Source: Candidatus Dormiibacterota bacterium
GTDB lineage: Bacteria > Chloroflexota > Dormibacteria > Aeolococcales > Bog-877
Direction: 5' to 3'
Assembly (NCBI GenBank): GCA_049591595.1
Contig: JBAWFE010000027.1
Location: forward strand, 149,812-213,811
DNA: 64,000 bases
How positions within the stretch are numbered: position 1 is the stretch's first letter; every line of letters starts with the position of its first letter. Under the pieces are notes generated by a model. The model made no database searches. It had not been told where the DNA came from and saw only the letters and a program-made list of their open reading frames with translations. A program made the position numbers and the translations under genes. Positions 13,272 to 48,834 of this stretch are shown here, one piece after another.

Positions 13272-13273
13272 GG

Positions 13274-14580: not shown

Positions 14581-14936
14581 CACACTGCTCCCAGCCCACT
14601 GGACCAATGTCGTTTGGTCGTAGCGAGTGGCAGGTAGGAAGTCGGCCGGGCCAGAGGGAACACGGTGCCGCTGCCCAGGCTCAAGGATGGCTCCTCACGT
14701 CCGCCTGATCGCTGCGCAGCGACGGCCGCGCAAGCAGGCTAGCGCCCGCCCCTGAGGGGCAAACGCAGCCGAGCCAAAATGGATGCTTCACATCCCCCAG
14801 TTTCATGATGTGGCTGGAGCGTATCCGGGCCTGGTCACACCGCGTCCGTACAAACTGTGACGCTTCGGTAACAGCTTCTTTCACTTGTCCAGTTCAGGCC
14901 AGCTGCAGGCTAGCACGCAAAGGGGGCACCGAGTTC

Positions 14937-32837: not shown

Positions 32838-33260
32838 TTGGCCGTCCCCACCAGGCTGCTGGCGGCCGTAAGGCCGCTCTTCGAGGGTGACTGCGACTTC
32901 ATCGTGGCCAGAGGCTCCGACGGCGAACTCGGGGTGCTGCCTGGCCATGCGCCGCTTCTCACCTGGCTCAAGCCCGGCGAGCTGATGCTGCGCCAAGGCC
33001 GTGACGAGCACTTTTTCTTCCTCGAAGGAGCCTACCTGGAGGTGCTCCGCGACCGGGTCTCGATCCTCGCCGATAGAGCTGTTCCCGTCAGCGAGATCGA
33101 CGCCGCCGCGGCGGAGGAGGCGAGGCGAGCCGCCCAGGAAGCCCTGGCCAGGACGACTAGTCCAGGGTCGGAGGAGTTGGCGGAGCTGCAAGGGGAGTTG
33201 GAGGTGGCGGAGTACCGGCTGCAGGCCGCCGAGCGCGACCGCCGGCGGCGCCGGGACTAG
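32838..33260 (+). CDS. atpC: F-type ATP synthase subunit epsilon
   Basis: GVLPGHAPLLTWLKPGELMLRQG is the beta-sandwich signature. C-terminal helical hairpin. TTG start 2 nt after the atpD stop. Confidence 0.85.
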   Translation: MAVPTRLLAAVRPLFEGDCDFIVARGSDGELGVLPGHAPLLTWLKPGELMLRQGRDEHFFFLEGAYLEVLRDRVSILADRAVPVSEIDAAAAEEARRAAQEALARTTSPGSEELAELQGELEVAEYRLQAAERDRRRRRD

Positions 33261-33320
33261 CGCTCTCCTCCGGGCTCGGTAACGACCCGGTCGCAGCCGG
33301 GCCCGGCAGGCAACCCGCCA

Positions 33321-33326
33321 TATACT
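33321..33326 (+). promoter_or_regulatory. candidate -10 hexamer TATACT placed 6 nt upstream of a GTG start (possible leaderless transcript)
   Basis: TATACT at 33321-33326 and GTG at 33333. TATACTC(C)GG also recurs at 40795 (upstream of flp) and 60038 (upstream of ftsE). Confidence 0.3.
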
Positions 33327-33332
33327 CGGCCG

Positions 33333-34124
33333 GTGCCAGGGGCCGGCGTCTCGCCCACTTCCATCTCTCCCGGTCCACTCACCGACGGCCCCGCGCGCCT
33401 GGAGGTGCTGGGGGTACCGGTGGACAGCTGCACCCTCCCACAAGCGCTGGCCCGCTGCGAAGCCGCAGCCACCCACGCACACGGTCCCTTGCAGGTGGTG
33501 ACCCTGAATCCGGAGATGGTCATGCAGGCGCGCCGGCAGCCCACCCTTGCTCAGGCGATCCGAGCTGCCGGGCTGATCCTCCCCGACGGTGCAGGGGTGG
33601 TCTGGGCAAGCCGCCGACTCGGGACGCCGGTCCCGGGGCGAATCGCGGGAGCTGACTTCCTGCACGACCTGGCGGGGCTGTCCGCCGACCGTGGCTGGTC
33701 GATCTTTCTGTTGGGGGCGGCTCCGGGAGTTGCCCAGGCGGCGGCCAATACGCTGGCGGAGACCCACCCGGGACTGCTGGTGGCCGGACTCTGGAGTGGC
33801 TCCCCAGACGAGAGTGAGGCGGTCGGCATCGCCGAGCGGATTCGGCAGTCTGGCGCCACCGTGCTGGCGGTCGCCTTCGGCGTGCCCCACCAGGATCTCT
33901 GGCTTGCTCACCACCTCGGCTCGACGGGGGCCCGGGTCGGAATCGGCGTGGGCGGCACGCTCGACTATCTCGCAGGCAGAGTGAGGCGGGCGCCCGAACC
34001 GCTGCGCAAGGCAGGGTTGGAGTGGAGCTTCCGACTGTTCCGCCAGCCCTGGCGACTACCGAGGATGCTCCGTGGTGCTCCCTTCTTTTGGGACGTGCTG
34101 AAGGAATCGCGGAGATCGTCCTGA
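33333..34124 (+). CDS. WecB/TagA/CpsF-family (GT26) glycosyltransferase
   Basis: LEVLGVPVDSCTLPQALARCEAA ... VVTLNPEMVMQARRQP ... ILPDGAGVVWASRRLG ... QDLWLAHH is GT26-collinear. Confidence 0.75.
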   Translation: MPGAGVSPTSISPGPLTDGPARLEVLGVPVDSCTLPQALARCEAAATHAHGPLQVVTLNPEMVMQARRQPTLAQAIRAAGLILPDGAGVVWASRRLGTPVPGRIAGADFLHDLAGLSADRGWSIFLLGAAPGVAQAAANTLAETHPGLLVAGLWSGSPDESEAVGIAERIRQSGATVLAVAFGVPHQDLWLAHHLGSTGARVGIGVGGTLDYLAGRVRRAPEPLRKAGLEWSFRLFRQPWRLPRMLRGAPFFWDVLKESRRSS

Positions 34125-34126
34125 CC

Positions 34127-34861
34127 TTGAGCGGAGGGCCGATCGAGCTCAGCCTTGTGCTGCCAGCCTATAACGAGGTGGTGCGGCTGCCGCCCTCTCT
34201 GGAGGCCATCCGCAAGTACCTGGACCTGGCGGGGAGACCGTACGAGGTGCTGGTGGTTGACGACGGGAGTTCAGATGGGACGCGGCGGATGGTGGAGCAG
34301 GTCATGGCGGACTGGCCCCAACTTCAGCTGATCGTCTTCGATCGCAACGAGGGCAAGGGGGCAGCCGTCCGAGCCGGCATGCTGCAGGCGGTCGGGCAGC
34401 TCCGGCTGTTCAGCGATGCCGACCTCTCGACCCCGATCTCGGAAATGGGAAAGCTGGAGACCGCGATCGCCAAAGGGGCGGGGGTGGCGATCGGGTCTCG
34501 GGCGCTTCCTGAATCCCAGGTTGAGCTACACCAGCCGCTCTATCGAGAGCTGATGGGCAAGACCTACAACCAGGCCCTGCGCCGACTGGTCCTTCCCGGG
34601 CTGAGGGACACCCAGTGCGGCTTCAAGATGTTCACTGCCGCCGCCGCCCAGAGCTGCTTCGCTCCGCTGCGGACGCCGGGCTTCGGCTTCGACGCCGAGG
34701 TGCTGCTGCGGGCGCGGCTGCAGGCCATTCCCATCGCCGAGGTTCCCGTCATCTGGCGCAACGCCGTCGGCACTCGGGTCAGTTCGTTTCGCGATGGGGG
34801 GCTGATGCTGGCAGATCTGCTGCGCCTGCGTCGGCGCGTCGGCTCGGACCCCACGGCGTGA
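34127..34861 (+). CDS. GT2 polyprenol-phosphate mannosyltransferase-like (Ppm/DPM1-like synthase)
   Basis: LSLVLPAYNE ... YEVLVVDDGSSDGT ... DADLS. The TTG start is 3 nt after the GT26 stop. Confidence 0.7.
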   Translation: MSGGPIELSLVLPAYNEVVRLPPSLEAIRKYLDLAGRPYEVLVVDDGSSDGTRRMVEQVMADWPQLQLIVFDRNEGKGAAVRAGMLQAVGQLRLFSDADLSTPISEMGKLETAIAKGAGVAIGSRALPESQVELHQPLYRELMGKTYNQALRRLVLPGLRDTQCGFKMFTAAAAQSCFAPLRTPGFGFDAEVLLRARLQAIPIAEVPVIWRNAVGTRVSSFRDGGLMLADLLRLRRRVGSDPTA

Positions 34862-36411
34862 GCCAGGAGCTGTCGCCTCGGCGCCAAGGGCTGGGGCCCG
34901 GGTTCTTCGACCTCGACCGGGCGGCCGGCTGGGCCCACGCGTTGCTTCGAGCGACCTCAGGTCGAGGGTGGTCGATCGCCGCTGCTGGGACGTTGGTCAT
35001 CGGAGGCGCGGCCGCCGGACTGCACGCCCCGACTTCGGGGGCGTGGTTCTGGCACGTGGCGAACGGAGAGCTGATCAGCCGCCACGGGCTAAGCGGCACC
35101 GCGCTGTCCCTGGCCCGACCGGGAGCGGTGCTCGACCTGCGCAGCTGGCTGGCCGATCTGGGGCTCTTCCTCATATATAGGAGCACCGGCCTCGTTGGTC
35201 TCGCGGTGACTGGCGCCGTCGCGGGCGCTCTGATCGGCGGTTGCCTGATCCTTGCGATCAGGGCTACCGCCAGGTCTCACCCGTTGGTGGCCCTCCTAGC
35301 TGGGGGGCTCGGACTTGGAGCCTTGGCACCGGTCATCACTGATTTGTCTTCGGAGCTGCTCGCCGTCCTCGCCGCCCTCTTGGTTCTCACCTTGACCTTT
35401 GCCGGGAGGCGGAGCTGGTGGGGAGCCGGTGCCGCGGTGGCGTTGATCGTCGTCTGGACCAATGCCCAGGCGGACGCCGGGATTGCCGTGGTGGTCATCT
35501 GGGGGTGGGTGGTCCTGGGCCACTGGGACGCCAACCGGCCGGGGCGCCCGACCGCGCCGAGCTGGTGGGTGATCCCGCTCGCCGGGGTGGCCCTGATCCT
35601 AAGTCCGAGGGGGATTGGTGCGGTCGCCCAGCTGCCGCTGAGCCTGGGTATGCAGGGCGAGAATCCGCTCTTGGCAGCGTGGTCCAGCATCAACTTCCAT
35701 CCCTGGACCGCCCGGGTGGCGGAGCTGGCGGGGATGGTGCTGTTGGTCGCGTACTGGCTCGCGGGTTCACGACTCCGCCGCACGGACGCCTTTCTGGGGC
35801 TCGGCACCGGCGTGCTGGCCCTCCTGTGGGCCAATTACCTGCCCTGGTTTCTGGTGGTGGCCGCAGTCCAGAGCAGCTGGTACCTGTCGGTAGCTTGGCT
35901 GCCGCGCGGGGCGGTCGATGGCTTGGCACCCACCTCCAGTCAAAGGGGAGGTGCAGGGAGTCACCGGGCCGCCGTGGCCGCGGCGATTCCGATCCTGATC
36001 GCGATTCTTGTGCTGGGATCCGGGTTGGCGGCTGTCTCAAGGCGGGGAGGGGTCAGCGGGCAGACTAAGGCTCAACTTCCGGTCCAGGCGGCGCGCTGGT
36101 TGGCTGTCCACCCGGCTCGCGGCGCCTGGTTCACCACCCCGAGCTTCGGAGACTATCTGAGCAGTCGGTTCCCCTCCGGTCACAATTTACTTTGCATCGA
36201 CGACCCCGTGCCCATGGCAGGCGCGGCGCTGGGTCAGTGCGAGGCGCTAGCGGAGCTCAATGCGGGATCCCTTGCGATCCTGCGGTCCCTGGGGGCGAAG
36301 CTGGCGGTCCTGCCCAGGGCCGCGCCGGCGGCCGCTTTCCTGCGAGCTGAGGGATGGGAGATCCGGTATCGTGACCCCACCACGGTGGTTCTAGCGCCCA
36401 GGAATCTCTAA
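34858..36411 (+). CDS. polytopic membrane protein (paralog of 37974-39566; possible GT-C-type glycosyltransferase)
   Basis: The GTG start overlaps the Ppm-like gene stop (GTGA). >10 predicted TM helices. WFWHVANGELI motif and a C-terminal soluble domain PVQAARWL...FGDYLS...WEIRYRD shared with the paralog. Confidence 0.5.
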   Translation: MSQELSPRRQGLGPGFFDLDRAAGWAHALLRATSGRGWSIAAAGTLVIGGAAAGLHAPTSGAWFWHVANGELISRHGLSGTALSLARPGAVLDLRSWLADLGLFLIYRSTGLVGLAVTGAVAGALIGGCLILAIRATARSHPLVALLAGGLGLGALAPVITDLSSELLAVLAALLVLTLTFAGRRSWWGAGAAVALIVVWTNAQADAGIAVVVIWGWVVLGHWDANRPGRPTAPSWWVIPLAGVALILSPRGIGAVAQLPLSLGMQGENPLLAAWSSINFHPWTARVAELAGMVLLVAYWLAGSRLRRTDAFLGLGTGVLALLWANYLPWFLVVAAVQSSWYLSVAWLPRGAVDGLAPTSSQRGGAGSHRAAVAAAIPILIAILVLGSGLAAVSRRGGVSGQTKAQLPVQAARWLAVHPARGAWFTTPSFGDYLSSRFPSGHNLLCIDDPVPMAGAALGQCEALAELNAGSLAILRSLGAKLAVLPRAAPAAAFLRAEGWEIRYRDPTTVVLAPRNL

Positions 36412-36460
36412 GCCACTTCGGCTACGATCCGGGCAGATCGATCGGCTCAGGCAGGAGAAC

Positions 36461-37432
36461 ATGTCCAAAAAGTCGATGGCCGCCCGGCGGCAGATGCGGG
36501 AGGCGGCGGCCGAGGGCCGGGTAGCCGGGTCCCGCCAGCAGACTCGCGGCCGGACCAAAGGCCGTAACTACCGCCGCAACACCTCCGGGCGGCCGTGGGG
36601 TCTGATCTCCGCAGTGGTCGGGGTGGTCGCGGTCTTCGTGATCGTGGTGGTGCTCATCGACGGCTCCGTCCAGGGCGCCTTGAAACAGGACACCCAGGTG
36701 CTGCCCGCGCCCGCATCTTTGGTGAGCGCGCTGGGTCACATTCCGGCGAAGACCCTGGACGCCGTGGCGGGGGGGAGTATCGCTAACTATCCGGTCAATA
36801 TCCCGGCCTCATACAAGCCGGTGGCGCTTAGCGCCAAGGGGCTGCCTGAGTTGGCCTTCGTCGGCGCGGAGTATTGCCCTTTCTGCGCAGTCCAGCGCTG
36901 GTCCCTGATCATTGGACTGAGCCCATTCGGCACGTGGTCGGGGTTACACATAATCCGGTCGTCGGTGTACGACACTCCGTCCAACCTGCCCACTTTCACT
37001 TTCGCCTATGGTGCGAAATTCAAGAGCAAATATCTAAACTTCTCGACCCGCGAACTCGAGAGCAACGTGTCAATAAACAAGGACGGTTCGCCCTACAAAT
37101 CCCTGCAAGCGATAACCGGCGAGCTGGAATCCGCCTTTACCAACATCGGCTCTGGGGGATACCCCTTTTTGGACTACGCCGGTAAAGTGGCCCAGGCGGG
37201 CAGCGAGGAGGGGAGCAGCTCGACCGACGTGGCCGCGTTGCAGGGCCTGAGCTGGAACCAGGTATTGACCCACTTGCGTAATAACCCCAATTCGGCGATA
37301 AGCCAGGTGGTCTTGGGCGGGGCCAACTATGTGACGGCGGCCACCTGCAGCATGACGGGCAATAAGCCCGCGGCGGTCTGCAACAGCTCGAGGATCAAGA
37401 CCCTGGAGAGTCAAGTGGCCGCGAGCGCGTGA
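36461..37432 (+). CDS. thioredoxin-fold protein with CPFC active site (DsbA-like; resembles DUF929)
   Basis: N-terminal Arg-rich cytoplasmic tail, one TM (LISAVVGVVAVFVIVVVLI), then FVGAEYCPFCAVQRWSLI (CxxC). RBS AGGAGA before the ATG. Confidence 0.5.
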   Translation: MSKKSMAARRQMREAAAEGRVAGSRQQTRGRTKGRNYRRNTSGRPWGLISAVVGVVAVFVIVVVLIDGSVQGALKQDTQVLPAPASLVSALGHIPAKTLDAVAGGSIANYPVNIPASYKPVALSAKGLPELAFVGAEYCPFCAVQRWSLIIGLSPFGTWSGLHIIRSSVYDTPSNLPTFTFAYGAKFKSKYLNFSTRELESNVSINKDGSPYKSLQAITGELESAFTNIGSGGYPFLDYAGKVAQAGSEEGSSSTDVAALQGLSWNQVLTHLRNNPNSAISQVVLGGANYVTAATCSMTGNKPAAVCNSSRIKTLESQVAASA

Positions 37433-37962
37433 GCAAATCTCGGAGTCGTCGACGGATGGTGCCGGCCACCGCCGGAGCCGACTCGGGAACTGAGCTCAGA
37501 TCCCCCGATGAGCGCTCTGAGTCGTCGCCGCTGGGGGCGGTGGCACTGGTCGTGCTCGCTCTCGTTGGAATGGGTCTTGCGGGGTACCTGACGGCGGTCC
37601 ACTATGCCCCCACGCTGTTGGTCTGCAGCAACAGCGGGGTGATCAACTGTGAGGCAGTACTGACCAGTAGCTTCTCGCTGATCCCGGGCACCTCGATTCC
37701 CATCACCGTGCCTGGGCTGGCCTTCTTCCTAGTCAGCTTGGCGCTGGCGGGGTCGCAGCTGCGTCGGCCGGAGAACTATCAGCTCCGCCAGGCCCACGCG
37801 GTGTGGGGAGGTCTGGGTCTGCTGACCGCGCTCTACTTGGTGTTTGTGGAAGTGATGGAGGTGCACAACATTTGCCTCTGGTGCTCCTGCGTGCATCTGA
37901 CCCTCCTGCTCACCTTCCTCATCACTCTATGGCGCCTCTACCCCAAGCCGAACGCCCGGTAA
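37429..37962 (+). CDS. vitamin K epoxide reductase (VKOR) family membrane oxidoreductase
   Basis: 4 TM. Loop cysteine pair CSNSGVINC and CxxC at the start of the last TM (CLWCSC). The GTG start overlaps the upstream stop (GTGA). Confidence 0.65.
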   Translation: MSKSRSRRRMVPATAGADSGTELRSPDERSESSPLGAVALVVLALVGMGLAGYLTAVHYAPTLLVCSNSGVINCEAVLTSSFSLIPGTSIPITVPGLAFFLVSLALAGSQLRRPENYQLRQAHAVWGGLGLLTALYLVFVEVMEVHNICLWCSCVHLTLLLTFLITLWRLYPKPNAR

Positions 37963-37973
37963 AACTGTGCTGG

Positions 37974-39566
37974 TCAGGGCAGGGCCCTGGCCTGGCTGGC
38001 ACAGGCGGCGATACCTCTGGACCGCCAGCTGGCCGCCGTAGGGTTGGCGGGCAGGTGCAGGGTGCTGAGCAGGCTGGTCCGCTCAAAACCCTCGACCCGG
38101 CGGTCCCGGTAGACGAGGGTCCACTCCTTCGATTGCTGAAGCGCATCCGGGAAGGCGGTGCCCCGTTCGAACACGACCACCTGGGAGGGGCTGGAGTCGA
38201 GGTTTTTGAGCCAGTTGGGGCTCAAGTCGATAATCGAGGCGTAGCGCTCCAGCAGCTGGCTGCCCATCAGCGCTGCGTCACCGAAGATGAACACCTTGTC
38301 CTTCGGCACTGAGTAAGCGAGGAAGCCACCGTCACCGTACTGGTTGAAGATGCGCAGCTGCCCCGGTGCGGAATCAAGCCACCTCGCGGCGCAGACGGGA
38401 AAGGAGTTGATGTAGGTCGAGGAGTTCAGCGCCGGGCTACCGCCGGTGTCCACCTGGACAGTCAGGAGGGCCAGTAGGAAGACGAACTCCAGCAGCTCGA
38501 CCAAAATCACCACCGGCGGCTGGCGCAGCCTCAGGTGGGGACGCCACCGTCGGGCCAGGTCAAGTCGGGCGCGGTCAGCCAGATTGATCCAGACAGGGGC
38601 GCCGGCCGCCAAGAGGAAGACACTGTTGCGTACCGACTGGAGGGTGAGGAAGAGGCTCAGGGCCAGCACTAGCCCGTCGCGCAGCGAGATCGATCGATAC
38701 CGGACCAGAAGCACCCCCAGGCTGAGGATGAAGATCAAAAGGGGGAGCAGCACCGCCGCGTGAAAGTCCGGGCTCTGCCACTCCTGGATCAGCGCCTGCT
38801 GGGCGGTGTTGAACTGTGTCTCGAAGGGGTAGGCGATGATCGCCGGTCCGTTGGGGTTGAGCAGGCATACAGCAACCGAGCAGCCGGTCGCCCATCCGAG
38901 TTGCACGATCCGATGTCGGTCTAGGGCGGACCGGCGCCGGGCCAGGACCAGGCCGCCCTCCACCACCATGATGGCCAGCAGGAAGATCAGCCCAAGGATG
39001 AATCCGGCATGCAGGTTGGACCAGATCAGGAAGATCGGGGGTAGCAGCCAGGCGGCGAACCCACCCCGCCGCAGTTGACGCTCCGCCAAGAGGAGCACCA
39101 ACGCCGTGAGCATGTATGAATCCATCTGGGAGCGCGGTCCCAGGATCGGATAGGCGGCCAGAGCTGCCAGCAGGATGCCCACCGCTAGGGTCGCGCCGTG
39201 GGCGGGTCCCAGCTCTCGGGATCGCAGCCAGATGAGCAGGAACAGGGCCAGGGTAATCAGCTCGTAGACGATCACCACACCTAAGCGGCCGGAGGCGGCG
39301 GCGACTGCCGCCATCCAGGACTCACTCAGCCACTCCTGCATCACCCAGTGGCGACCCACCGCCATGAAGGCGTACGGGTTGACGTGGATGAGAGCGTTGG
39401 TGGCCAGCAGGGTCTTGCCGTTCCGCAGGTGCCACCAGAAGTCCGGGTCCGAGACCTCGGGTCGTGCCAGGAGCATGGCCGCCAGGAGCCCACTCAGGGC
39501 GAGGAACCGAGGCAAGGTCAACCACTGGCGCCGCGTGGTCGCCCGCCTCAGCTGATCCGGTGGCAC
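37974..39566 (-). CDS. polytopic membrane protein (paralog of 34858-36411)
   Basis: DFWWHLRNGKTL / IHVNPYAF motifs, >10 TM, and a C-terminal domain PVCAARWL...YGDGGFLA...WTLVYRD matching the paralog. Confidence 0.5.
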   Translation of the reverse strand: MPPDQLRRATTRRQWLTLPRFLALSGLLAAMLLARPEVSDPDFWWHLRNGKTLLATNALIHVNPYAFMAVGRHWVMQEWLSESWMAAVAAASGRLGVVIVYELITLALFLLIWLRSRELGPAHGATLAVGILLAALAAYPILGPRSQMDSYMLTALVLLLAERQLRRGGFAAWLLPPIFLIWSNLHAGFILGLIFLLAIMVVEGGLVLARRRSALDRHRIVQLGWATGCSVAVCLLNPNGPAIIAYPFETQFNTAQQALIQEWQSPDFHAAVLLPLLIFILSLGVLLVRYRSISLRDGLVLALSLFLTLQSVRNSVFLLAAGAPVWINLADRARLDLARRWRPHLRLRQPPVVILVELLEFVFLLALLTVQVDTGGSPALNSSTYINSFPVCAARWLDSAPGQLRIFNQYGDGGFLAYSVPKDKVFIFGDAALMGSQLLERYASIIDLSPNWLKNLDSSPSQVVVFERGTAFPDALQQSKEWTLVYRDRRVEGFERTSLLSTLHLPANPTAASWRSRGIAACASQARALP

Positions 39567-39679
39567 GTCATATCCCGAGCGATCACGGGCGCCAGTGTAG
39601 GTGGGGCCGGCGGCCCCTCACTGTGGCGTCGCCTGACCAGCCCCGGGCATTTCTTTGGGCCACCACGTACCCTTTGGGC

Positions 39680-40741
39680 GTGGCCGCTCGACCCCAGTCG
39701 CCCGTCGCGTCTCCTCTCGGGGAGCTCCAGCTGGTCCTGGAGGAGGAGGTGCTCCGGGTGGAGAACGCCCTCCTCACCATCGACGAGGAGGTCATGCAGC
39801 TGCTCTCCGCCCTGGACCAGGTCGGGGACCGGCTGGAGGACTCCGACATCGTGCGCCGCCATGTCCTGCGTGACCACGCGCGCTTCACTTCCGCCGAGGT
39901 GGAGGCCGCCATCGGTCGCTGCTTCGCTTTGAGATCAGAGATGACCTTGGCTAGGCTGCGCCTCGCCCACTGTCGGAGCTGGGCGAAGGAGTTGCGCTAC
40001 TGGCACTCCCTGATGAAGGCAGCCGCCGAACAGTTGGAGGACCACCGACCTCCCGACGGCACCCTGGAGGAGGGTCTGGCGCGCTATCGAAGCGCGTCGC
40101 GGCAGGTCTTCCAGACCATCGACGAGGAGCGGATGCGGATTGCCCGGGATATGCACGACGGACCCGCTCAGTCGATGTCCAATCTGGTGCTTCGGGCCGA
40201 GATTCTCGAGCGCATGGTCGATCGGGAGCCAGAGCGGGCCAAAGCGGAGGTTCAGAGCTTCAAGGATGCGATGAAGGGGGTGTTGGACGAGACCAGACAG
40301 CTGATCTTCGACCTGCGCCCTATGACCCTTGACGACCTTGGGGTGATTCCGACTCTGCGACGGCTGGTCAACGAGTTCCGGGACGCGGAGGGGATCGAGG
40401 GCCGGCTCTCGGTGATCGGAACTGAACGGCGACTCCCGGCGGCCACCGAGGGAGCTCTCTTCCGGATCGTCAAGGAAGCTCTGGTCAACGTCCGCAAGCA
40501 CGCTCGAGCGCACAGCCTGGATGTACTAATTAATTTGCAGCCGCAGCGGGTGAGCGCGGTCATCAAGGACGATGGGGATGGCTTCGACCTAGCGGCGGTG
40601 GAGGTGCGGCTTGCTCGCGAACCACACTTCGGACTGATCTCGATGCGGGAGCGCGCCGACCTCGAGCAAGGTCAACTGGAAATCCTCTCCCAGGTCGGCC
40701 GAGGCACCGAAGTGCGAGTAACGCTGCCGATCGAACCGTGA
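39680..40741 (+). CDS. cytoplasmic sensor histidine kinase (HisKA_3 + HATPase_c, DegS/NarX-type)
   Basis: H-box RMRIARDMHDGPAQSMSNL, an N-terminal coiled coil, no TM segment, and an ATPase G-box region DDGDGF. Start uncertain (TTG 39674 or GTG 39680). Confidence 0.7.
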   Translation: MAARPQSPVASPLGELQLVLEEEVLRVENALLTIDEEVMQLLSALDQVGDRLEDSDIVRRHVLRDHARFTSAEVEAAIGRCFALRSEMTLARLRLAHCRSWAKELRYWHSLMKAAAEQLEDHRPPDGTLEEGLARYRSASRQVFQTIDEERMRIARDMHDGPAQSMSNLVLRAEILERMVDREPERAKAEVQSFKDAMKGVLDETRQLIFDLRPMTLDDLGVIPTLRRLVNEFRDAEGIEGRLSVIGTERRLPAATEGALFRIVKEALVNVRKHARAHSLDVLINLQPQRVSAVIKDDGDGFDLAAVEVRLAREPHFGLISMRERADLEQGQLEILSQVGRGTEVRVTLPIEP

Positions 40742-40868
40742 TTCCTGACAGGAAAGTTACGCAGCGGTTACACGGATTGCTGGCTACCTGACCATATACT
40801 CCGGCTGCCATAGCTAGGCCTAGGGATTCAGTTTCCTAGATTGAGAACGGCAAGGAGGTCTGAAAGGT

Positions 40869-41072
40869 ATGCTCGGAAGTTGGTACGTACGGCTGCGTGA
40901 CCGGATCGGTCAGGTAGTCTCGCACCGCGACTCGGACGAAGAGGGCCAGGGGATGGTTGAGTACGCGTTGATCCTGGTGCTGATCGCGATCGTTGTCATC
41001 GTTATCCTCACTGTGGTGGGACACCGCGTCAGCGACGTCTTCTCCAACATCAACACTGGTCTCGGCGGCTGA
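40869..41072 (+). CDS. flp: Flp-family type IVc prepilin
   Basis: GQGMVEYALILVLIAIVVIVILTVVG matches the Flp motif G/xxxxEY followed by a hydrophobic helix. AAGGAGG RBS 7 nt upstream. 67 aa. Confidence 0.65.
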   Translation: MLGSWYVRLRDRIGQVVSHRDSDEEGQGMVEYALILVLIAIVVIVILTVVGHRVSDVFSNINTGLGG

Positions 41073-41176
41073 TTCGTCGTAGCACTCAAGCGCGCGGCGG
41101 GGCGACCCGCCGCGCGTTTGTCCAATCCACCCAACGGCCCCGCGGCCCGCGGTAATCCCAGCGGAGGTTTTCGACG

Positions 41177-42328
41177 GTGACGACCGATTTGAAAGGACGG
41201 GTCAATCAGGTCTGGATCGCCATAGGGCTGATCCTCGCGATCCTCGCGTTCGGCGCGGCTTATTACTTCACTCGCGCCAACACCAATAACACTCGAGTGG
41301 CCCCGGCCACCGGCCAGTTGGTGGTGATCGCGAAGGTCTCGATCCCCAGCGGTACGCTGATCACCGCCGGCATGCTCGAGGAGACCCGGATCAAGGGTCT
41401 GCTACCCCTCGATTCGTACAGCTCGTGTGTGCAACTCGTGCGCACCGCCTGTGCTGCAACTGCCGGTGTGTCGGCATCGCAGTCGACGTCAACCTCCGCC
41501 TCGGACTATTACGCCGTCGTTCCGATCACCCCCAACACGGTGATCACTCAGAACAACGTCTCCGTAAACCGAGCAACCCAGTCACCATCTTTCGGCAACT
41601 TGAATCTGCCGGCTGGTGAAGTTGCCGTGGCTATTCCGATTACCGCCGCGGAGTCGGTCGCCGGCTACCTCCAGGTGGGTGACCGGATTGACATCATCGG
41701 TCTTGACTCGAGCGGAAACACCGACTTCACCTTCGAGGACCTTCCGGTGATCAGCATCGGATCTCCGTCGACGGCGACCGGGGCAGCGAGCAGCTCGTCA
41801 GGCGGCGGACTGATCGTTCTTCAGCTGACGCGCAGCGAGGCCCTTGGCGTGACCGAGATGGTCAACGACGGTTCCATATACACGATCGCGCTGCGGTCCA
41901 GTGCGGACTACGGCCACGGCTACATTCCGATCACTTCGACGCCGGCTGACGAGTACACCCAGGCCTGCGTGGCGGGGAGCTCCGTCAACCCGATCATCCA
42001 AGAGGACATGCAGACGGCTCAGCTGTCGGTCACGGCGGCGTCCAAGACCTACACCACCGCCCACAAGCAATACAACAAGGACAACACCGCGCTGCAGAGC
42101 ATGTCGGGCACCGGCTCGGCCGAGCAGGCCGCCAAGGCCCAAGTGCTCACGGATGCGGCCACCTTGGCCCAGGATCAGTTCGCCCTGATCGAGGCCCAGA
42201 ATGAGCTGGCTTCCGACCAAGCGGTCCTGTACTGCGGATCCACCAATGCCGCCAGCTCGTCATCGTCGGCGGGCAACAATTCCGGTAGCTCGCAGATGCT
42301 GCAGAACCTCTTTGGCTTCAAACCCTGA
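41177..42328 (+). CDS. cpaB: CpaB/RcpC-family Flp pilus assembly protein with C-terminal extension
   Basis: N-terminal TM (WIAIGLILAILAFGAAYYF) then a SAF-like region QLVVIAKVSIPSGTLITAGML. ~150 aa extra C-terminal coiled coil and Ser-rich tail. Confidence 0.6.
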   Translation: MTTDLKGRVNQVWIAIGLILAILAFGAAYYFTRANTNNTRVAPATGQLVVIAKVSIPSGTLITAGMLEETRIKGLLPLDSYSSCVQLVRTACAATAGVSASQSTSTSASDYYAVVPITPNTVITQNNVSVNRATQSPSFGNLNLPAGEVAVAIPITAAESVAGYLQVGDRIDIIGLDSSGNTDFTFEDLPVISIGSPSTATGAASSSSGGGLIVLQLTRSEALGVTEMVNDGSIYTIALRSSADYGHGYIPITSTPADEYTQACVAGSSVNPIIQEDMQTAQLSVTAASKTYTTAHKQYNKDNTALQSMSGTGSAEQAAKAQVLTDAATLAQDQFALIEAQNELASDQAVLYCGSTNAASSSSSAGNNSGSSQMLQNLFGFKP

Positions 42329-42367
42329 TCCTGAGGGACGAGCGCACCTCAGGGTAGCCGGTAGTTC

Positions 42368-43627
42368 GTGAGCACCACGGTGGCGGATAAGACCGTCATC
42401 CGCGTGGTGGTGGTCGACGACATCGCCAGCACCCGAGAGAACCTCAAGAAGTTGCTCTCCTTCGAGGAGGACATTGAGGTTGTCGGGACCGCTGGCGATG
42501 GCCGGACCGGCATCGACGTGACCCGGCAACTCTCGCCGCACGTGGTGCTGATGGACGTCAACATGCCGGGAATGGACGGGATCGCCGCGACTGAGACCCT
42601 GGCAGTGGAATCGCCCAACTCCCCGGTCGTGATCATGTCCGTCCAGGGGGAGCGGGACTACCTGCGCCGCGCGATGCAGTCGGGTGCTCGGGAGTTCCTC
42701 ATCAAGCCCTTCACCGGCGACGAGCTGGTGTCCAGCATCCGCCGGGTCTACGAGATGGAGGAGAAGAAGGGATCCTACCTGCCGCGCCAGCCTCCCCCCC
42801 AGGAGCAGGTAGGCGACCTGCCCCCAACCGGTTGCCAGGTGTGTCTGGTTCTCAGCGGGAAGGGGGGCTGCGGCAAGACCTTCTTGGCCATCAACCTCGC
42901 CGCCGCCCTGCGGACGGAGACGGGCGGTCGGGTCTGCCTGGTCGATCTCGATCTCCAGTTCGGCGACATCGGCGTGATGCTCAATTTGGACCACGCCAAG
43001 ACGATCACCGAACTGGTGGACAGCGAGAGTGCGTTGGACTGGGAGTTCGTCGACGACATCCTGGCCGATGGTCCAGAGGGGATTCGGGTCCTGCTGGGTC
43101 CCTTCAGCCCGGAGTTCGGGGACCTAGTCCGGGCGGAGCATGTGCGCGCCATCGTCGACGTTCTGCGACGAGAGTTTGACTATGTCGTCGTGGACAGTGG
43201 GAGCCAACTATCGGAGGCTACCCTCGAAGCAACCGAGTTGGCCGATCACGTGATCGTGGTCGGTGAGCTCACTATTCCCGCGATCAAGGACACTCGCCTG
43301 ATGCTGAAGATGCTGGAGTCGCTCAAAGTGGACCGCTCGCGGGTCATGGTCGCGGTCAACGCCCATGACGCGCATGCCGTCTATGACGCAGCCAGCATCG
43401 AGCGCAATCTGCGGTTCCCGGTCAAGCTGCAGATACCCTCGGAGCCTCGCCTGGTGGGCGGATCGATCCATCGGGCGATCCCGCTGGTCGTCTCCCACCC
43501 GGATTCCGACATCTCCTTGCTCTTCCGCAACCTGGCCCGAAGCCTGGCACCGGAAGGGGCAGCTCAGCCTGAACTCAAGGCCGAGGCCAAGGCGCCCACC
43601 GCCCGTCGCTTCGGGCTTCGGCGCTAG
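42368..43627 (+). CDS. tadZ: TadZ/CpaE: response-regulator receiver fused to a MinD/ParA-like ATPase
   Basis: REC domain with an intact phospho-acceptor region (VVVDD...VVLMDVNMPGMDG...FLIKPF), then a deviant Walker A LSGKGGCGKTFLAINLAAAL. Confidence 0.75.
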   Translation: MSTTVADKTVIRVVVVDDIASTRENLKKLLSFEEDIEVVGTAGDGRTGIDVTRQLSPHVVLMDVNMPGMDGIAATETLAVESPNSPVVIMSVQGERDYLRRAMQSGAREFLIKPFTGDELVSSIRRVYEMEEKKGSYLPRQPPPQEQVGDLPPTGCQVCLVLSGKGGCGKTFLAINLAAALRTETGGRVCLVDLDLQFGDIGVMLNLDHAKTITELVDSESALDWEFVDDILADGPEGIRVLLGPFSPEFGDLVRAEHVRAIVDVLRREFDYVVVDSGSQLSEATLEATELADHVIVVGELTIPAIKDTRLMLKMLESLKVDRSRVMVAVNAHDAHAVYDAASIERNLRFPVKLQIPSEPRLVGGSIHRAIPLVVSHPDSDISLLFRNLARSLAPEGAAQPELKAEAKAPTARRFGLRR

Positions 43628-43653
43628 GCCCAGTCGAGGAGTACTGCCAGGCC

Positions 43654-45225
43654 ATGTCACTGCTGGAGAGAGTTCGGACCAAGGACGGATCGGAGCCGGA
43701 GCCCGGCCCCGAAGTGTCCGCGCCAGTCGAGGAGAAGCCCAAGGCCAGGACGCCTGAGCCGGCAGCTGCGGCCCCCCCCGCTCCACCTCCCGCTGCTCCT
43801 TCTCGCCTAGCGGCCGCCCTGGCTGCCGCCAAGCCTCCGGCCGTAGCCGCCCCGGCCAAGTCGCCAGGATGGCGGGAGCGGTCCCAGACCAATCGGGAGA
43901 ACCCCTCGGCGGTGGTCGAGCCCCGGGCGGCTCATCACCCGCAGTACATGTCGATCAAGGCGCGGGTGACCCAGGCCCTACTGGAGGAGTACACCGACGT
44001 CTCCCAGGCGCCCCGCGAGCGGTTGGTCGCCAAGATCGGGGAGCTCTGCAATTCGGTCCTGGAAGAGCTGAGCATTTCGATCACCCGCACCGATCGGCAG
44101 CGGATGGTGGAGCAGCTGATCAGCGACGTGCTCGGCCTGGGCCCGCTGGAGATGATTCTCAAGGACCCGGAGATCAGCGAAATCATGATCAACGGCCCGG
44201 AGGATGTCTACGTCGAGCGCCAGGGAAGGATCTATCGCTACCCGGCCAAGTTCGACAACACGGACCACCTGATGCAGATCATCGACCGGATCGTCAGCTC
44301 GATCGGACGCCGAGTCGATGAGAGCTCGCCGATGGTGGACGCCAGACTCAAAGACGGCTCCCGGGTCAACGTGATCATCCCGCCGCTGGCGCTCCAGGGA
44401 CCGACTTTGACCATCCGGCGCTTCTCCAAGGACCCCTACACGGTGGAGGATCTGATCAACTTCGGAACTCTCACCGCTGAGATGGCGACGTTCATCCGGG
44501 CCTGCGTGCGGGCCAGGTTCAACGTGCTGATCTCAGGAGGCACCGGGTCCGGTAAGACGACCACTCTGAACGTGCTCTCCGGCTGGATCCCCGACGACGA
44601 GCGGATCATCACAATTGAGGACGCAGCCGAGTTGCAGCTGCGCCAAGACCACGTTGTGACCCTGGAGTCGCGCCCCTCCAACATCGAGGGCCGAGGACGG
44701 GTCAGCATTCGTGATCTGGTCATCAACAGCCTGCGGATGCGGCCGGATCGGATCGTCGTCGGTGAGTGTCGGGGAGGTGAGGCCCTGGATATGCTCCAGG
44801 CGATGAACACAGGCCACGACGGCTCACTTACCACTGTTCACGCCAACACTCCAGCCGACGCTTTGACCCGACTGGAGACCATGACGTTGATGGCCGGCAC
44901 CGACCTCCCGTCGCGGGCCATCCGCGAGCAGATCGCGTCGGCTATCCACCTGGTGGTTCAGCAAGCTCGCCTTCGCGATGGCACCCGGCGCATCATCGCC
45001 ATCTCCGAAGTCCGGGGCTTCGACGGGGAACGGGTCGAGATCGCGGACATCTTCCAGTACCGCCAGAAGGGCCTCGATGACCAGGGGATGGTGATCGGCC
45101 AGTTCGAAGCGGTCCAGGTTCCCAAGCGCCTCGATGATCTGGCCGCCGCTGGCGAGGGGTTGGAGGAATCGCTGTTTGCTCCTCCTTCCAAGGGCAAAAT
45201 AGCAGCAGGAGAGACCGCCGCATGA
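43654..45225 (+). CDS. tadA: CpaF/TadA secretion ATPase (VirB11/PilB superfamily) with Pro/Ala-rich N-terminal extension
   Basis: Walker [24 protein letters not shown], Asp/His boxes [17 protein letters not shown]. ~130-aa low-complexity N-terminus. Confidence 0.9.
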   Translation: MSLLERVRTKDGSEPEPGPEVSAPVEEKPKARTPEPAAAAPPAPPPAAPSRLAAALAAAKPPAVAAPAKSPGWRERSQTNRENPSAVVEPRAAHHPQYMSIKARVTQALLEEYTDVSQAPRERLVAKIGELCNSVLEELSISITRTDRQRMVEQLISDVLGLGPLEMILKDPEISEIMINGPEDVYVERQGRIYRYPAKFDNTDHLMQIIDRIVSSIGRRVDESSPMVDARLKDGSRVNVIIPPLALQGPTLTIRRFSKDPYTVEDLINFGTLTAEMATFIRACVRARFNVLISGGTGSGKTTTLNVLSGWIPDDERIITIEDAAELQLRQDHVVTLESRPSNIEGRGRVSIRDLVINSLRMRPDRIVVGECRGGEALDMLQAMNTGHDGSLTTVHANTPADALTRLETMTLMAGTDLPSRAIREQIASAIHLVVQQARLRDGTRRIIAISEVRGFDGERVEIADIFQYRQKGLDDQGMVIGQFEAVQVPKRLDDLAAAGEGLEESLFAPPSKGKIAAGETAA

Positions 45226-46253
45226 ACGCTCTAGTACTGGTCCTGGACGGGGTCGGTGCCTTGGCCTTGGGAGCCGCGGTCGCCTACCTGCTCGCCTCCT
45301 GGCGCTCGAAGTCGGGAAGTGCCGACATGGATGAGCGGGTGCGCCGCTTCGCCGAAGCCGGCGCCGGACTGGCGATCTCCGTCCCCGGTGATGAGGACTT
45401 TGGCGAATCGGCCGGCAGCCTGCAGGATCGAGCCAAGAAGCTGCTGGCGCGGCTGCGCCGCCAGGTTGAAGGAGGCAGTAAGGCGGCGGGCGTAGCCCAG
45501 CGACCTAGGTCGGTGCAAGTGGCGGAGGCGTTGGCGCGGGCTGATGTCAAGCTGCGACCGACAGAGTGGTATCTGATTCGAATCGGGGCGGTGGTGCTGC
45601 TGGCGCTGATCGGTCTCGCCCTCTACCGCAGCCTCATCTTCGCGCTCATCCTCGGAGTGATCGGTGTCTTCGTTCCTCCGTTGGTGCTGCGCTTTCGAGC
45701 CCGACGCCGCCTCGGCCGCTTCAATGACCAGCTCGGGGACACCCTGATCCTCCTCAGCAACGCGCTCAAGGCCGGTTACAGCTTTCCCCAGGCGATGGCC
45801 AGCATCGCCCGCTCGGCGCCACCGCCGACCTCGGAGGAGTTCGCCCGGGCAACCCGGGAGGTGCAGCTGGGGGTGACCACCGACGCGGCGCTCACCCACA
45901 TGGTCCATCGGATCCAGTCCGACGACCTCGACCTGGTAGTTACCGCCGTGCAGATTCAGCGCGTCGTGGGCGGCAATCTGGCCGAGATCTTCGACAACAT
46001 CGCCTTCACCATCCGGGAGCGTATCCGGATCAAGGGTGAGATCAAGACCCTGACCGCCCAGGCCCGGGCCTCGAGCTTCATCATCACCGGATTGCCGATC
46101 GGCTTGGGACTGATCCTGGAGGCGATCAACCCCAACTACATCGCCCCCCTGCTCTCCTTCAAGGGCCCTGGTCCGTACATCCTGATTGGATGCCTGATCT
46201 CCATTGCCTTCGCCTTCTACGTGATGCAGCGCATCGCCAACATCGAGGTCTGA
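45222..46253 (+). CDS. tadB: TadB (T2SS-F domain inner-membrane platform protein)
   Basis: T2SSF-like domain. 4-nt overlap with tadA. Confidence 0.8.
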   Translation: MNALVLVLDGVGALALGAAVAYLLASWRSKSGSADMDERVRRFAEAGAGLAISVPGDEDFGESAGSLQDRAKKLLARLRRQVEGGSKAAGVAQRPRSVQVAEALARADVKLRPTEWYLIRIGAVVLLALIGLALYRSLIFALILGVIGVFVPPLVLRFRARRRLGRFNDQLGDTLILLSNALKAGYSFPQAMASIARSAPPPTSEEFARATREVQLGVTTDAALTHMVHRIQSDDLDLVVTAVQIQRVVGGNLAEIFDNIAFTIRERIRIKGEIKTLTAQARASSFIITGLPIGLGLILEAINPNYIAPLLSFKGPGPYILIGCLISIAFAFYVMQRIANIEV

Positions 46254-46256
46254 GCG

Positions 46257-47174
46257 ATGTCTTATGAAGCGCTGATCGTCGGTTTGATCGCCGCCGCCGC
46301 GGTCTTCCTGGTCTTTGCCGGGCTGATCAAGCGCCAACCCCAGGTGAACCTCCTGGACGCGCGGCTCGCCGTGTATGACGAGCCAACAGGTCCCAGGACG
46401 CTCGATGAGATCGAGATGAGCCAGCCCTTCACGGAGCGCTTCCTGCGCCCCTTCTTCGACCGCATCGGTCGGCGGGTGGCGGCTCTTCAGCCGCGGGACC
46501 GCGCCCAGAAACTCCAGATTCTCATCGACCTGGCCGGCCGGCCGATGGGGATGAACGCGGGTAGCTTCGTGGCCGCCCAGATCGTGCTCGCAGTGCTGGG
46601 GGCCGTCGTGGGTCTCGGCCTGGCGGTCCTGCTTTCCTTGCCTTGGTTCCTCGGCTTGGTCTTCGGCGCCGTGCTCGGTTACATCGGCCCGCAGTACCAG
46701 CTGAAGCGGATCGTGAGCGCAAAGCAGAAGGAGATCTCGCTGGCGCTACCCAACGCCCTCGACCTCCTCTGCATCAGCGTGGAGGCCGGTCTGGGATTCG
46801 ACGCCGCCTTGGCTCGGGTGATCGAGAAATTTGATAACGCCCTCTCACGGGAATTCGCCTTCGTGCTCAACGAAATCCGGCTGGGGCGACCCCGCCACGA
46901 GGCGCTCGAGGATCTCGGCAAGCGCTCAGGGGTTCAGGAGCTGGCGTCCTTCATCCAGGCGCTGGTGCAGTCCGATCAACTTGGGGTGGGCATCGCCCGC
47001 GTTTTGCGCATCCAGTCCGACGAGATGCGCCGCCGCCGGCGTCAGAAGGCGGAGGCCAAGGCTCAGCAGGCGAGCCTGAAGATGCTCTTCCCGATGGTCG
47101 GCTGCATCTTCCCGGTGCTGTTCGTGATCCTGCTGGGTCCGCCGGCTGTGGCGTTGATCTTCCATGTCACCTAA
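46257..47174 (+). CDS. tadC: TadC (T2SS-F domain inner-membrane platform protein)
   Basis: Second T2SSF-like protein, 3 nt after tadB. Confidence 0.75.
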   Translation: MSYEALIVGLIAAAAVFLVFAGLIKRQPQVNLLDARLAVYDEPTGPRTLDEIEMSQPFTERFLRPFFDRIGRRVAALQPRDRAQKLQILIDLAGRPMGMNAGSFVAAQIVLAVLGAVVGLGLAVLLSLPWFLGLVFGAVLGYIGPQYQLKRIVSAKQKEISLALPNALDLLCISVEAGLGFDAALARVIEKFDNALSREFAFVLNEIRLGRPRHEALEDLGKRSGVQELASFIQALVQSDQLGVGIARVLRIQSDEMRRRRRQKAEAKAQQASLKMLFPMVGCIFPVLFVILLGPPAVALIFHVT

Positions 47175-47640: not shown

Positions 47641-48834
47641 ATGAGTCCGGTCCTTACCGAAGAAGAGAGGCTGCAAGGCATGGAGGGATACCTCCAGGCC
47701 CTCGGTCCGCTGCGGGTTCTAGTGGAAGATGACAGTCTCACCGAGATCATGGTCGTCGGTCCGGACATGGTGTACGTGGAGGCCCAGGGCAAGATCGTGC
47801 TCACCGACGTCCGCTTCCGCGACAACGAGCATCTCCTCAAGGTGATCGACCTGATCGTCGCCGCGGTCGGACGCCGCGTTGACGTTCGTCAGCCACTCTG
47901 TGACGCACGTTTGCTGGACGGCTCCCGCGTCAACGCGGTGGTGCCCCCGGTGTCTATCGACGGACCAATTCTGACCATCCGTAAGTTCGCCAAAGAGCGC
48001 CTGCGGATCACCGACCTGATCCATTTCGGCACCATCGATGAGGCGGGTGCATCGTTCATGCAGGCCTGCGTGCTGGCCCGCGCGAACATCCTCATCTCGG
48101 GAGGCACCGGCGCCGGCAAGACGACGCTGCTGAACATCTGCTCAGGCTTCATTCCTCCCGACGAGCGCATCGTCACCATCGAGGACGCCGCAGAGCTGCA
48201 GATGCACCAGGAGCATGTCTGTCGGCTGGAGTCGCGTCCCCCGGACGTGCGTGGCGAGGGCCGGATCAACATCCGCGACCTGGTCATCAACGCCCTCCGG
48301 ATGCGACCTGATCGAATTGTGGTCGGTGAGGTTCGAGGCGGTGAGGCTCTGGACATGCTTCAGGCCATGAACACGGGCCATGACGGCTCCATGACCACCG
48401 TCCACGCCAACACCCCTCGAGACAGTCTCTCCCGTCTGGAGACCCAGGTATTGATGGGTGGCGTGGAGCTGCCCTCGAAGGCGATTCGTCAGCAGATCTC
48501 CAGCGCCATCGACATCATCGTGCAGCTCAACCGCCTCCGCGACGGCAGCCGTCGGATCACCGCGATCAGCGAGGTGGTCGGGATGGAGGGCGACACGATC
48601 ACGATGCAGGACATCTTCGTGATGAAGGCCGAGGGCATGGATCAGCAGGGCAACCTGAAGAATGAGTTCGAGCTGACCGGGGTCAGGCCGCAGATCCTCG
48701 ACCGTCTCTTCGACATGGGCTTGGCGGTTCCACCCGAGATCTCAAGGCTCTTCCCGGACCGGCGCACCGACCAGGTGGCGGCGATCAAGTTGCCGACACC
48801 ACCCCCCGGTCCATTGCAGAGGCGTCTTGGCTGA
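47641..48834 (+). CDS. second CpaF/TadA-like secretion ATPase paralog (N-terminally shorter, 397 aa)
   Basis: [40 protein letters not shown]. ~80% nt identity to the tadA core over ~100 nt (44758-44850 vs 48319-48420). Confidence 0.85.

Follow-up and report, generated by a model that had tools for sequence, protein, structure and literature searches.

In Mycobacterium tuberculosis, the genes for the thiol oxidase DsbA and for VKOR are found next to each other, and the DsbA protein contains an extra structural disulfide. Two quinone-linked enzymes, VKOR and DsbB, are known to re-oxidise proteins of the DsbA type (PMC4555120, PMC12453122), and both draw electrons from a thioredoxin-like partner, which is left in the oxidised state (PMC4555120). 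An N-terminal CXXC domain has been reported on the VKOR proteins of Chloroflexus and Roseiflexus (Bevans, 2015). The DUF929 family (PF06053) was placed in the thioredoxin-like clan by a fold-recognition study in 2010 (PMC3091736), and the experimentally determined secretome of Picrophilus torridus was found to contain DUF929 proteins (PMC8345856). We found no literature linking DUF929 to VKOR; most subscription papers lay outside this search, so that an earlier description is possible. Here, we analysed a stretch of 64,000 nucleotides from a Candidatus Dormiibacterota soil bacterium (contig JBAWFE010000027.1), hereafter referred to as the window, in which a gene coding for a DUF929 protein overlaps with a gene coding for a VKOR protein. 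A sequence-only reading of this DNA had proposed that a DUF929 protein with a CPFC motif and a single transmembrane (TM) helix, and a VKOR with four TM helices, both encoded at 36461-37962, form a disulfide-forming pair of the DsbA/DsbB type. Both open reading frames (ORFs), their motifs and their Pfam matches are present, and the invariant cysteines, the predicted topology and the gene linkage support such a pair in silico. We therefore propose, with a probability of roughly 0.75, that the DUF929 protein is a thiol oxidase, which acts in the role of DsbA and is recycled by VKOR.

The DUF929 and VKOR genes and their products

The two genes and their main features are located in the window as follows:

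36461-37432, + strand: DUF929 (PF06053) thioredoxin-fold protein, 323 amino acids (Pfam, NCBI naming and AlphaFold2 model)
36599-36658, + strand: single TM anchor of DUF929, residues 47-66, GLISAVVGVVAVFVIVVVLI (hydropathy and flanking charges; helix 48-70 in the model)
36875-36886, + strand: catalytic CPFC motif, C139-P-F-C142, at the start of helix 140-156 and after strand 128-135
37163-37168, + strand: invariant P235-F236, directly before strand 236-239, where thioredoxin folds have their cis-proline loop; presumed cis geometry and presumed proximity to the CxxC motif
37346-37381, + strand: C296 and C307, a further pair of invariant Cys residues, in the C-terminal helical bundle (helices 279-298 and 304-307 in the model)
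37429-37432, + strand: GTGA overlap of the VKOR start codon (GTG, 37429-37431) and the DUF929 stop codon (TGA, 37430-37432)
37429-37962, + strand: VKOR-family (PF07884) quinone-linked thiol oxidase with four TM helices, 177 amino acids (168 if started at ATG 37456)
37624-37650, + strand: loop pair of VKOR, C66-x7-C74, in the first outside loop, which follows TM1 (C66 at 37624, C74 at 37648)
37873-37884, + strand: active-site CLWC motif of VKOR, C149-C152, at the outer end (start) of TM4

The profile searches suggested by the sequence-only reading assigned both proteins to the expected families. The DUF929 ORF matches PF06053 with 64.3 bits and an E-value of 1.6e-17 in the Pfam profile search (cut-off 24.6), and a precomputed PF06053 match is present in all 120 homologs listed. 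The GC content at the third codon position (GC3) of the ORF is 0.82, which is typical of coding sequences (window GC 65%), its ATG start codon is preceded by AGGAG 8 nucleotides upstream and the CPFC motif is encoded by the codons TGC-CCT-TTC-TGC. An NCBI entry from a metagenome-assembled genome (MAG) of Candidatus Dormiibacterota, named 'DUF929 family protein', matches the protein with 100% identity, and all close relatives of the DUF929 protein come from Dormibacterota. The host thus belongs to Candidatus Dormibacterota, the actinobacterial framing of the sequence-only reading falls away and a comparison with actinobacterial VKOR proteins is an analogy only. One homolog with 72% identity (P0005) is labelled 'Candidatus Micrarchaeaceae/Micrarchaeia archaeon' at NCBI and probably derives from a mis-binned or misclassified MAG contig.

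Across 32 aligned homologs with identities as low as 31%, the DUF929 residues C139, P140, C142, P235, F236, C296 and C307 are invariant and the region around the active site follows the motif GAEYCP[YF]CAxxRW. Of 102 DUF929 ORFs in the related loci described below, 75 carry CPYC and 20 CPFC (95 in all), so that a loss of the CxxC motif, which had been named as an observation that would speak against a disulfide-forming pair, was not seen. The predicted parts of the protein are an N-terminal tail in the cytoplasm that is rich in Arg and Lys (residues 1-46), a signal-anchor TM helix (residues 47-66) and an extracytoplasmic catalytic domain (approximately residues 80-323). The 46-residue N-terminal tail contains 14 Lys/Arg and two Asp/Glu residues, whereas the 21 residues following the TM helix are near-neutral with one of each kind. 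Due to this difference in charge, DUF929 is predicted to be a signal anchor with an N-in/C-out orientation, which would place the CPFC domain outside the membrane; a cytoplasmic CPFC domain, the second observation named as speaking against the pair, is not what these charges predict.

The AlphaFold2 model of DUF929, which was built on the alignment of 32 sequences, has a mean predicted local distance difference test score (pLDDT) of 85, and the values exceed 90 across almost the whole of residues 80-323. The model contains, in order, strand 128-135, helix 140-156 with the CPFC motif at its start, further strands, a beta-rich insertion (residues 177-214), helix 220-228, P235 in front of strand 236-239, strand 243-246 and a C-terminal helical bundle (residues 257-321). 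It thus displays a thioredoxin fold with the CxxC motif at the N-terminus of helix 1. The alpha-helical inserted domain that is typical for DsbA is absent from the predicted structure, where strand 2 and helix 2 are separated by the beta-rich insertion. According to the model, DUF929 elaborates the thioredoxin fold in its own way, has no close relative of solved structure and departs from the architecture of DsbA. Within the helical bundle of the model, C296 and C307 probably form a structural disulfide. No match to the DsbA-family profiles PF01323 and PF13462 was found for the DUF929 protein at E-values up to 0.01 in Pfam or NCBIfam, its sequence profile had no meaningful relative among PDB sequences and a Foldseek search of the model against the PDB gave nothing below an E-value of 0.4. 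As it lacks a profile match and its predicted domain architecture is different, DUF929 lies outside the DsbA family, yet it is DsbA-like by every indirect criterion. The family is large, with 3,016 representatives at 50% identity. No natural fusion between DUF929 and VKOR is present among the 150 best of these representatives; the longer proteins just have extended N-terminal tails.

The VKOR ORF matches PF07884 with 72.1 bits and an E-value of 6.2e-20 (cut-off 27.5) over profile positions 2-133 of 134, whereas NCBIfam only gave sub-threshold matches. Its GC3 of 0.80 is again coding-type, and, as for DUF929, an NCBI protein from a Candidatus Dormiibacterota MAG is 100% identical and the close relatives come from Dormibacterota. 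All listed VKOR homologs carry PF07884 alone. Hydropathy prediction gives four hydrophobic segments, in agreement with the four-helix core of the family. Residues C66, C74, C149 and C152 are invariant in 25 homologs down to 29% identity, and S80, which corresponds to the Ser/Thr following the loop pair in VKOR proteins, is conserved in at least 90% of these sequences. A VKOR profile matches the Synechococcus VKOR structures 4nv6 and 3kp9 with an E-value of 1e-14 and with the Cys pairs aligned. Among the 64 VKOR proteins encoded in the related loci, the x7 spacing of the loop pair is seen in 45, and CLWC is the commonest variant of the active site (26 of 64). The numbers of Lys/Arg residues are seven in the N-terminal tail, three in loop 2 and three at the C-terminus, compared to none in the loop with C66 and C74, and the redox centres of VKOR and the CPFC domain of DUF929 are predicted to face the same, outer side of the membrane. 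Judged by these matches, the VKOR protein adds an unremarkable new member to its family.

Both NCBI and Logan annotate the VKOR start at ATG 37456, resulting in a protein of 168 amino acids, whereas the sequence-only reading had proposed translational coupling through a GTGA overlap. This overlap is present, and the comparative data favour the GTG codon. The junction reads GTGA in the window, L001, L002 and L034 (our handles for related loci), ATGA in L039 and CTGA in L003-L009; within ten Dormibacteria loci, the overlap codon is GTG in three and CTG in seven. In these ten loci, the peptide between the two candidate starts, S-x-x-R-x-R-R-R, is kept in the VKOR frame from the overlap codon onward, and its Arg codons vary synonymously (CGT, CGA, CGG, CGC and AGG). 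Without this peptide, the N-terminal tail of VKOR would have a net negative charge (two Lys/Arg, five Asp/Glu), whereas it contains seven Lys/Arg residues when the peptide is included. As the Arg-rich peptide is conserved as protein and begins exactly at the overlap codon, the overlapping GTG start appears to be real in the window and is better supported than ATG 37456. In L003-L009, the first canonical start codon is located 24-27 nucleotides downstream of CTGA (57 in L004), and an overlapping start would require CTG initiation or re-initiation. With either start, the DUF929 and VKOR genes are at most 23 nucleotides apart, and the GTGA overlap probably leads to translational coupling.

Linkage of DUF929 to VKOR and DsbB across phyla

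In a scan of one genome per species, at least 592 stretches encoding relatives with the motif GAEYCP[YF]C were found. The linkage counts refer to the best 80 loci, which span Dormibacteria, Actinomycetota (Streptosporangiaceae, Trebonia, Dactylosporangium, Actinopolymorpha and Acidimicrobiales) and Chloroflexota (Ktedonobacteria) and in which VKOR genes were identified by an iterative hidden Markov model search with the window VKOR over all locus ORFs. A VKOR gene is present in 64 of the 80 loci, in every case on the same strand as DUF929, and DUF929 is located directly upstream of VKOR in 62 of these 64. The same order, DUF929 and then VKOR, is also seen in the precomputed Pfam calls of an unrelated 633-kb contig. 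In six of the 16 loci without VKOR, a PF02600 DsbB gene (34-60 bits) adjoins DUF929, so that one or the other re-oxidase is encoded beside DUF929 in 70 of the 80 loci. Canonical DsbA is adjacent in one locus of the 80, which lacks VKOR and contains a DsbA-like gene. The 64-kb window contains no canonical DsbA or DsbB gene and no second copy of DUF929 or VKOR.

No other neighbour is conserved across phyla in these loci. The next commonest cluster codes for a TPR/AAA protein and is present in 20 loci, and the neighbours outside Dormibacterota are unrelated and include TPR/AAA proteins, SCO1/SenC, CtaG and ABC transporters. CcdA/DsbD is not among the most recurrent neighbour clusters annotated in the 80 loci. 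As the matches to the two families have E-values of 1e-17 and 1e-20 and the arrangement recurs in 64 of 80 loci, the adjacency of DUF929 and VKOR is, on the basis of these sequence comparisons, far beyond chance.

Two further observations were made in this set of loci. In eight of them, for example the actinobacterial loci L040, L052, L054, L060 and L076, DUF929 genes flank VKOR on both sides, and two DUF929 paralogs around one VKOR recall organisms with several DsbA paralogs. A SCO1/SenC-domain protein (626 amino acids) is encoded near the pair in 16 actinobacterial loci and Caa3_CtaG in nine (e.g. L068:8747-10627, L059:10755-11702 and L056:96-803), which hints at a link to the assembly of the copper site of cytochrome oxidase.

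Proposed function and alternative explanations

Since VKOR or DsbB adjoins DUF929 in 70 of 80 loci and both enzymes re-oxidise DsbA-type proteins, DUF929 is best explained as a substrate of VKOR or DsbB. We propose that the DUF929 protein is anchored by its single N-terminal helix with the thioredoxin-fold domain facing outward. In the role of DsbA, the oxidised C139-P-F-C142 motif would hand its disulfide to the Cys pairs of newly exported proteins, and the reduced CPFC motif would afterwards be re-oxidised by VKOR in the role of DsbB. To this end, electrons could pass from CPFC to C66/C74 of VKOR, from there to C149-L-W-C152 at the top of TM4, and further to a membrane quinone, probably menaquinone, and the respiratory chain. 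The two genes are probably co-transcribed as the last genes of a five-gene string, and the GTGA coupling would help to match the amounts of the two proteins. The assignment to families, the conserved cysteines, the predicted topology, the thioredoxin fold and the linkage to VKOR or DsbB across phyla come from the analysis itself, whereas we infer that electrons flow in the direction of an oxidase and not of a reductase, as well as which quinone and which substrates are used and that the two genes are coupled.

Several points weigh against this proposal. The dipeptide of CP[F/Y]C is also found in glutaredoxins, so that the redox potential is not fixed by it. The PF06053 match of DUF929 is limited to residues 120-205, which align with profile positions 7-96 of 205 and leave the second half of the profile uncovered. 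Neither a VKOR nor a DsbB gene is found nearby in ten of the 80 loci, two of which end just after the DUF929 gene. The DUF929 literature that we found consists of the fold prediction and the secretome list mentioned above, without a functional experiment or an assigned function. The five-gene operon WecG-GT2-GT-C-DUF929-VKOR (GT, glycosyltransferase) is deduced from spacing alone, and a promoter and terminator scan of positions 33000-41200 gave no sites at gene boundaries, with counts near the shuffle expectation.

The genes surrounding the pair, and the more distant genes for candidate substrates, are the following:

33333-34124, + strand: WecG/TagA-family GT (PF03808, 184 bits), which heads the gene string
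34127-34861, + strand: GT2 (PF00535, 88 bits), two genes upstream and of the type that makes polyprenyl-phosphate-linked sugar donors, which merely suggests that the GT-C proteins may use such a donor
34858-36411, + strand: memA, multi-TM protein of 517 amino acids with a presumed GT-C fold based on paralogy to memB; overlaps the GT2 stop codon by 4 nucleotides (context only)
37974-39566, - strand: memB, GT-C-fold glycosyltransferase-like membrane protein of 530 amino acids; convergent with VKOR, with a gap of 11 nucleotides (context only)
40869-41072: Flp pilin without Cys, start of the nearby Tad locus
41177-42328: CpaB, four Cys
11211-13271, - strand: TadG-like protein of 686 amino acids, 11 Cys
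13274-14008 and 13948-14607, - strand: TadE-like pseudopilins, eight and five Cys, respectively

The genetic location of the pair might indicate that it is a dedicated oxidase for the surrounding glycosylation machinery, forming, for example, the invariant disulfides in the outward-facing C-terminal domains of the flanking GT-C proteins or disulfides in their glycoprotein targets, and not a general DsbA system; we consider this rather unlikely. The sequence-only reading had placed the pair between two paralogous GT-C-like membrane proteins, which agrees with our analysis: memB has the GT-C membrane fold, and memA, whose gene ends 49 nucleotides in front of DUF929, is a distant paralog with 22% identity over 503 amino acids (E-value 2e-8). 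Neither protein has a Pfam or NCBIfam match and every memB homolog is labelled hypothetical. In memB, the motif DPDFWWHLR between the first helices is invariant, with D40-P41-D42 invariant in 28 homologs and the loop presumably oriented outward. In favour of a dedicated oxidase, memB contains two invariant residues, C392 and C522, after its last TM helix, two Cys are found at the corresponding place in memA, and all nine Dormibacteria loci share the gene order WecG-GT2-GT-C-DUF929-VKOR-GT-C. Synteny in these nine loci extends from the ATP synthase operon to the genes for Flp pilin and CpaB, down to 44% DUF929 identity. An association with GT-C proteins also recurs with different components in L050 and L071, where DUF929 and DsbB are encoded with two GT87 genes, and a weak PMT_2 match is located 2 kb downstream of DUF929 in L020. 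However, outside the class Dormibacteria the DUF929-VKOR pair alone persists, and beyond Dormibacterota just the pair is conserved among unrelated neighbours. A gene order kept within a single class may be due to common descent and nothing more, and L050 and L071 may be orthologous and hence represent a single event.

Some further observations concern these neighbours. In L050:3125-6682 and L071:5569-9013 (both - strand), the DsbB gene beside DUF929 shares its gene string with two GT87 (GT-C) genes, which parallels the position of VKOR between two GT-C genes in the window. The identities between L001-L009 and the window are 44-61% for DUF929, 49-60% for VKOR, 55-78% for memB, 67-95% for the histidine kinase and 76-93% for the ATP synthase beta subunit; DUF929 and VKOR thus diverge at rates similar to each other and faster than the neighbouring genes. 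As for DUF929, an NCBI protein from a Candidatus Dormiibacterota MAG is 100% identical to memB and the close relatives of memB are found in Dormibacterota, and a GT-C homolog with 51% identity (P0285) is, like P0005, labelled 'Candidatus Micrarchaeaceae/Micrarchaeia archaeon' at NCBI, again probably owing to mis-binning or misclassification of the MAG contig.

If the DUF929 protein indeed acts as a general oxidase recycled by VKOR, likely candidates for its substrates among the proteins encoded in the window are the TadE-like protein with eight Cys, CpaB with four Cys and the C-terminal domains of the GT-C proteins with their invariant Cys pairs. The sequence-only reading had pointed to Cys-rich Tad pseudopilins close to the pair. 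Such proteins are real, with eight, five and 11 Cys in the two TadE-like proteins and the TadG-like protein, and remain plausible substrates, but 'close' was an overstatement, as the TadE/TadG region (11211-14607) is located approximately 22 kb from the DUF929-VKOR pair and approximately 26 kb from the main Tad locus (40869-47174), and the Flp pilin nearby has no Cys. With regard to the Tad locus, two ORFs on the + strand (43654-45225 and 47641-48834) are of note, the second of which looks like another CpaF-type ATPase (397 amino acids, by appearance) and is preceded by TadB/TadC and a DUF192 gene. The next gene downstream (48827-49666) codes for a protein that is predicted to be exported, with a Gly/Pro-rich tail and no Pfam family.

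Alternatively, DUF929 might not be an oxidase at all, and could be a reductant or isomerase similar to CcmG, TlpA or DsbC, or the pair might serve quinone reduction, with DUF929 feeding electrons to VKOR. The SCO1/SenC (16 actinobacterial loci) and Caa3_CtaG (nine loci) genes near the pair would fit such a role, and giant viruses are reported to carry VKOR modules that serve lipid or quinone chemistry instead of protein folding (PMC13486548). On the other hand, the known extracytoplasmic reductants are recycled by CcdA/DsbD, which is absent from the recurrent annotated clusters, whereas VKOR or DsbB is found in 70 of 80 loci, and both of these enzymes leave their partner oxidised (PMC4555120), which makes this explanation quite improbable. 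Finally, it is hardly credible that the adjacency of DUF929 and VKOR has no functional meaning or that the CPFC domain is cytoplasmic, for which nothing speaks beyond the uninformative promoter and terminator scans, and against which stand the same-strand adjacency in 64 of 80 loci, its spread over three phyla and the partner swap to DsbB as well as, for the topology, the strong positive-inside signal and the presence of relatives in a secretome (PMC8345856).

Based on the role proposed here for DUF929 and VKOR, we speculate further, with about as much doubt as conviction, that DUF929 represents a structurally distinct class of disulfide-introducing proteins, which stands in for DsbA in Dormibacterota, Ktedonobacteria, many Actinomycetota and possibly also those archaea in which the family was originally defined, and can be recycled by either VKOR or DsbB. 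Surveys using PF01323 and PF13462 would then misjudge these lineages, and in Dormibacterota the system might in addition be wired to GT-C glycosylation. A recent survey searched for PF01323, PF02600 and PF07884 (PMC12453122), and such a search would find the VKOR protein described here without its partner. If this proposal is correct, a family of approximately 3,000 clusters at 50% identity gains a function, the gap in oxidative folding closes for Dormibacterota, Ktedonobacteria and many soil actinomycetes, and a third thioredoxin-fold architecture for disulfide formation, at present without a solved structure, is added to those known. The recurrent proximity to GT-C genes hints at an unexplored link between envelope glycosylation and disulfide formation.

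Comparison with known disulfide-forming systems

Compared to the family model, the DUF929 protein of the window scores above the curated cut-off of Pfam PF06053, but its C-terminal half differs from the model. Similar to E. coli DsbA/DsbB, the window encodes a presumed CxxC oxidase together with a quinone-linked re-oxidase with four TM helices and two Cys pairs, and the six related loci in which DUF929 genes adjoin PF02600 DsbB recall the E. coli system. In contrast to E. coli, the membrane partner in the window is VKOR and not DsbB, and DUF929 does not belong to the DsbA family. In addition, dsbA and dsbB are unlinked in E. coli, whereas the DUF929 and VKOR genes described here overlap.

The pair also resembles the M. 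tuberculosis proteins DsbA (Rv2969c) and VKOR (Rv2968c) and the actinobacterial MdbA/VKOR system, in which an anchored extracytoplasmic CxxC oxidase is recycled by a VKOR that replaces DsbB (PMC12421883, PMC12453122). Unlike in these actinobacterial systems, the host is a member of the Dormibacterota and the partner of VKOR belongs to PF06053, without a PF01323 or PF13462 match. The DUF929 model contains the beta-rich insertion (residues 177-214) and the C-terminal helical bundle, whereas DsbA has an inserted helical domain. In addition, the VKOR protein described here has four TM helices, whereas actinobacterial VKOR proteins have been reported to possess a fifth (PMC4555120).

The closest solved relative of this VKOR is the fusion of VKOR with a thioredoxin-like domain from Synechococcus (PDB 3kp9, 4nv2 and 4nv6; E-value 1e-14). 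In the Synechococcus protein, the partner is fused C-terminally via a fifth TM helix, whereas in the window a separate upstream gene codes for the partner, which is anchored by an N-terminal helix of its own and comes from another thioredoxin-fold family. Despite this different arrangement, we propose that electrons would follow the same path as in the Synechococcus fusion, from a thioredoxin-like CxxC motif to the loop Cys pair, on to the CxxC motif of VKOR and finally to the quinone.

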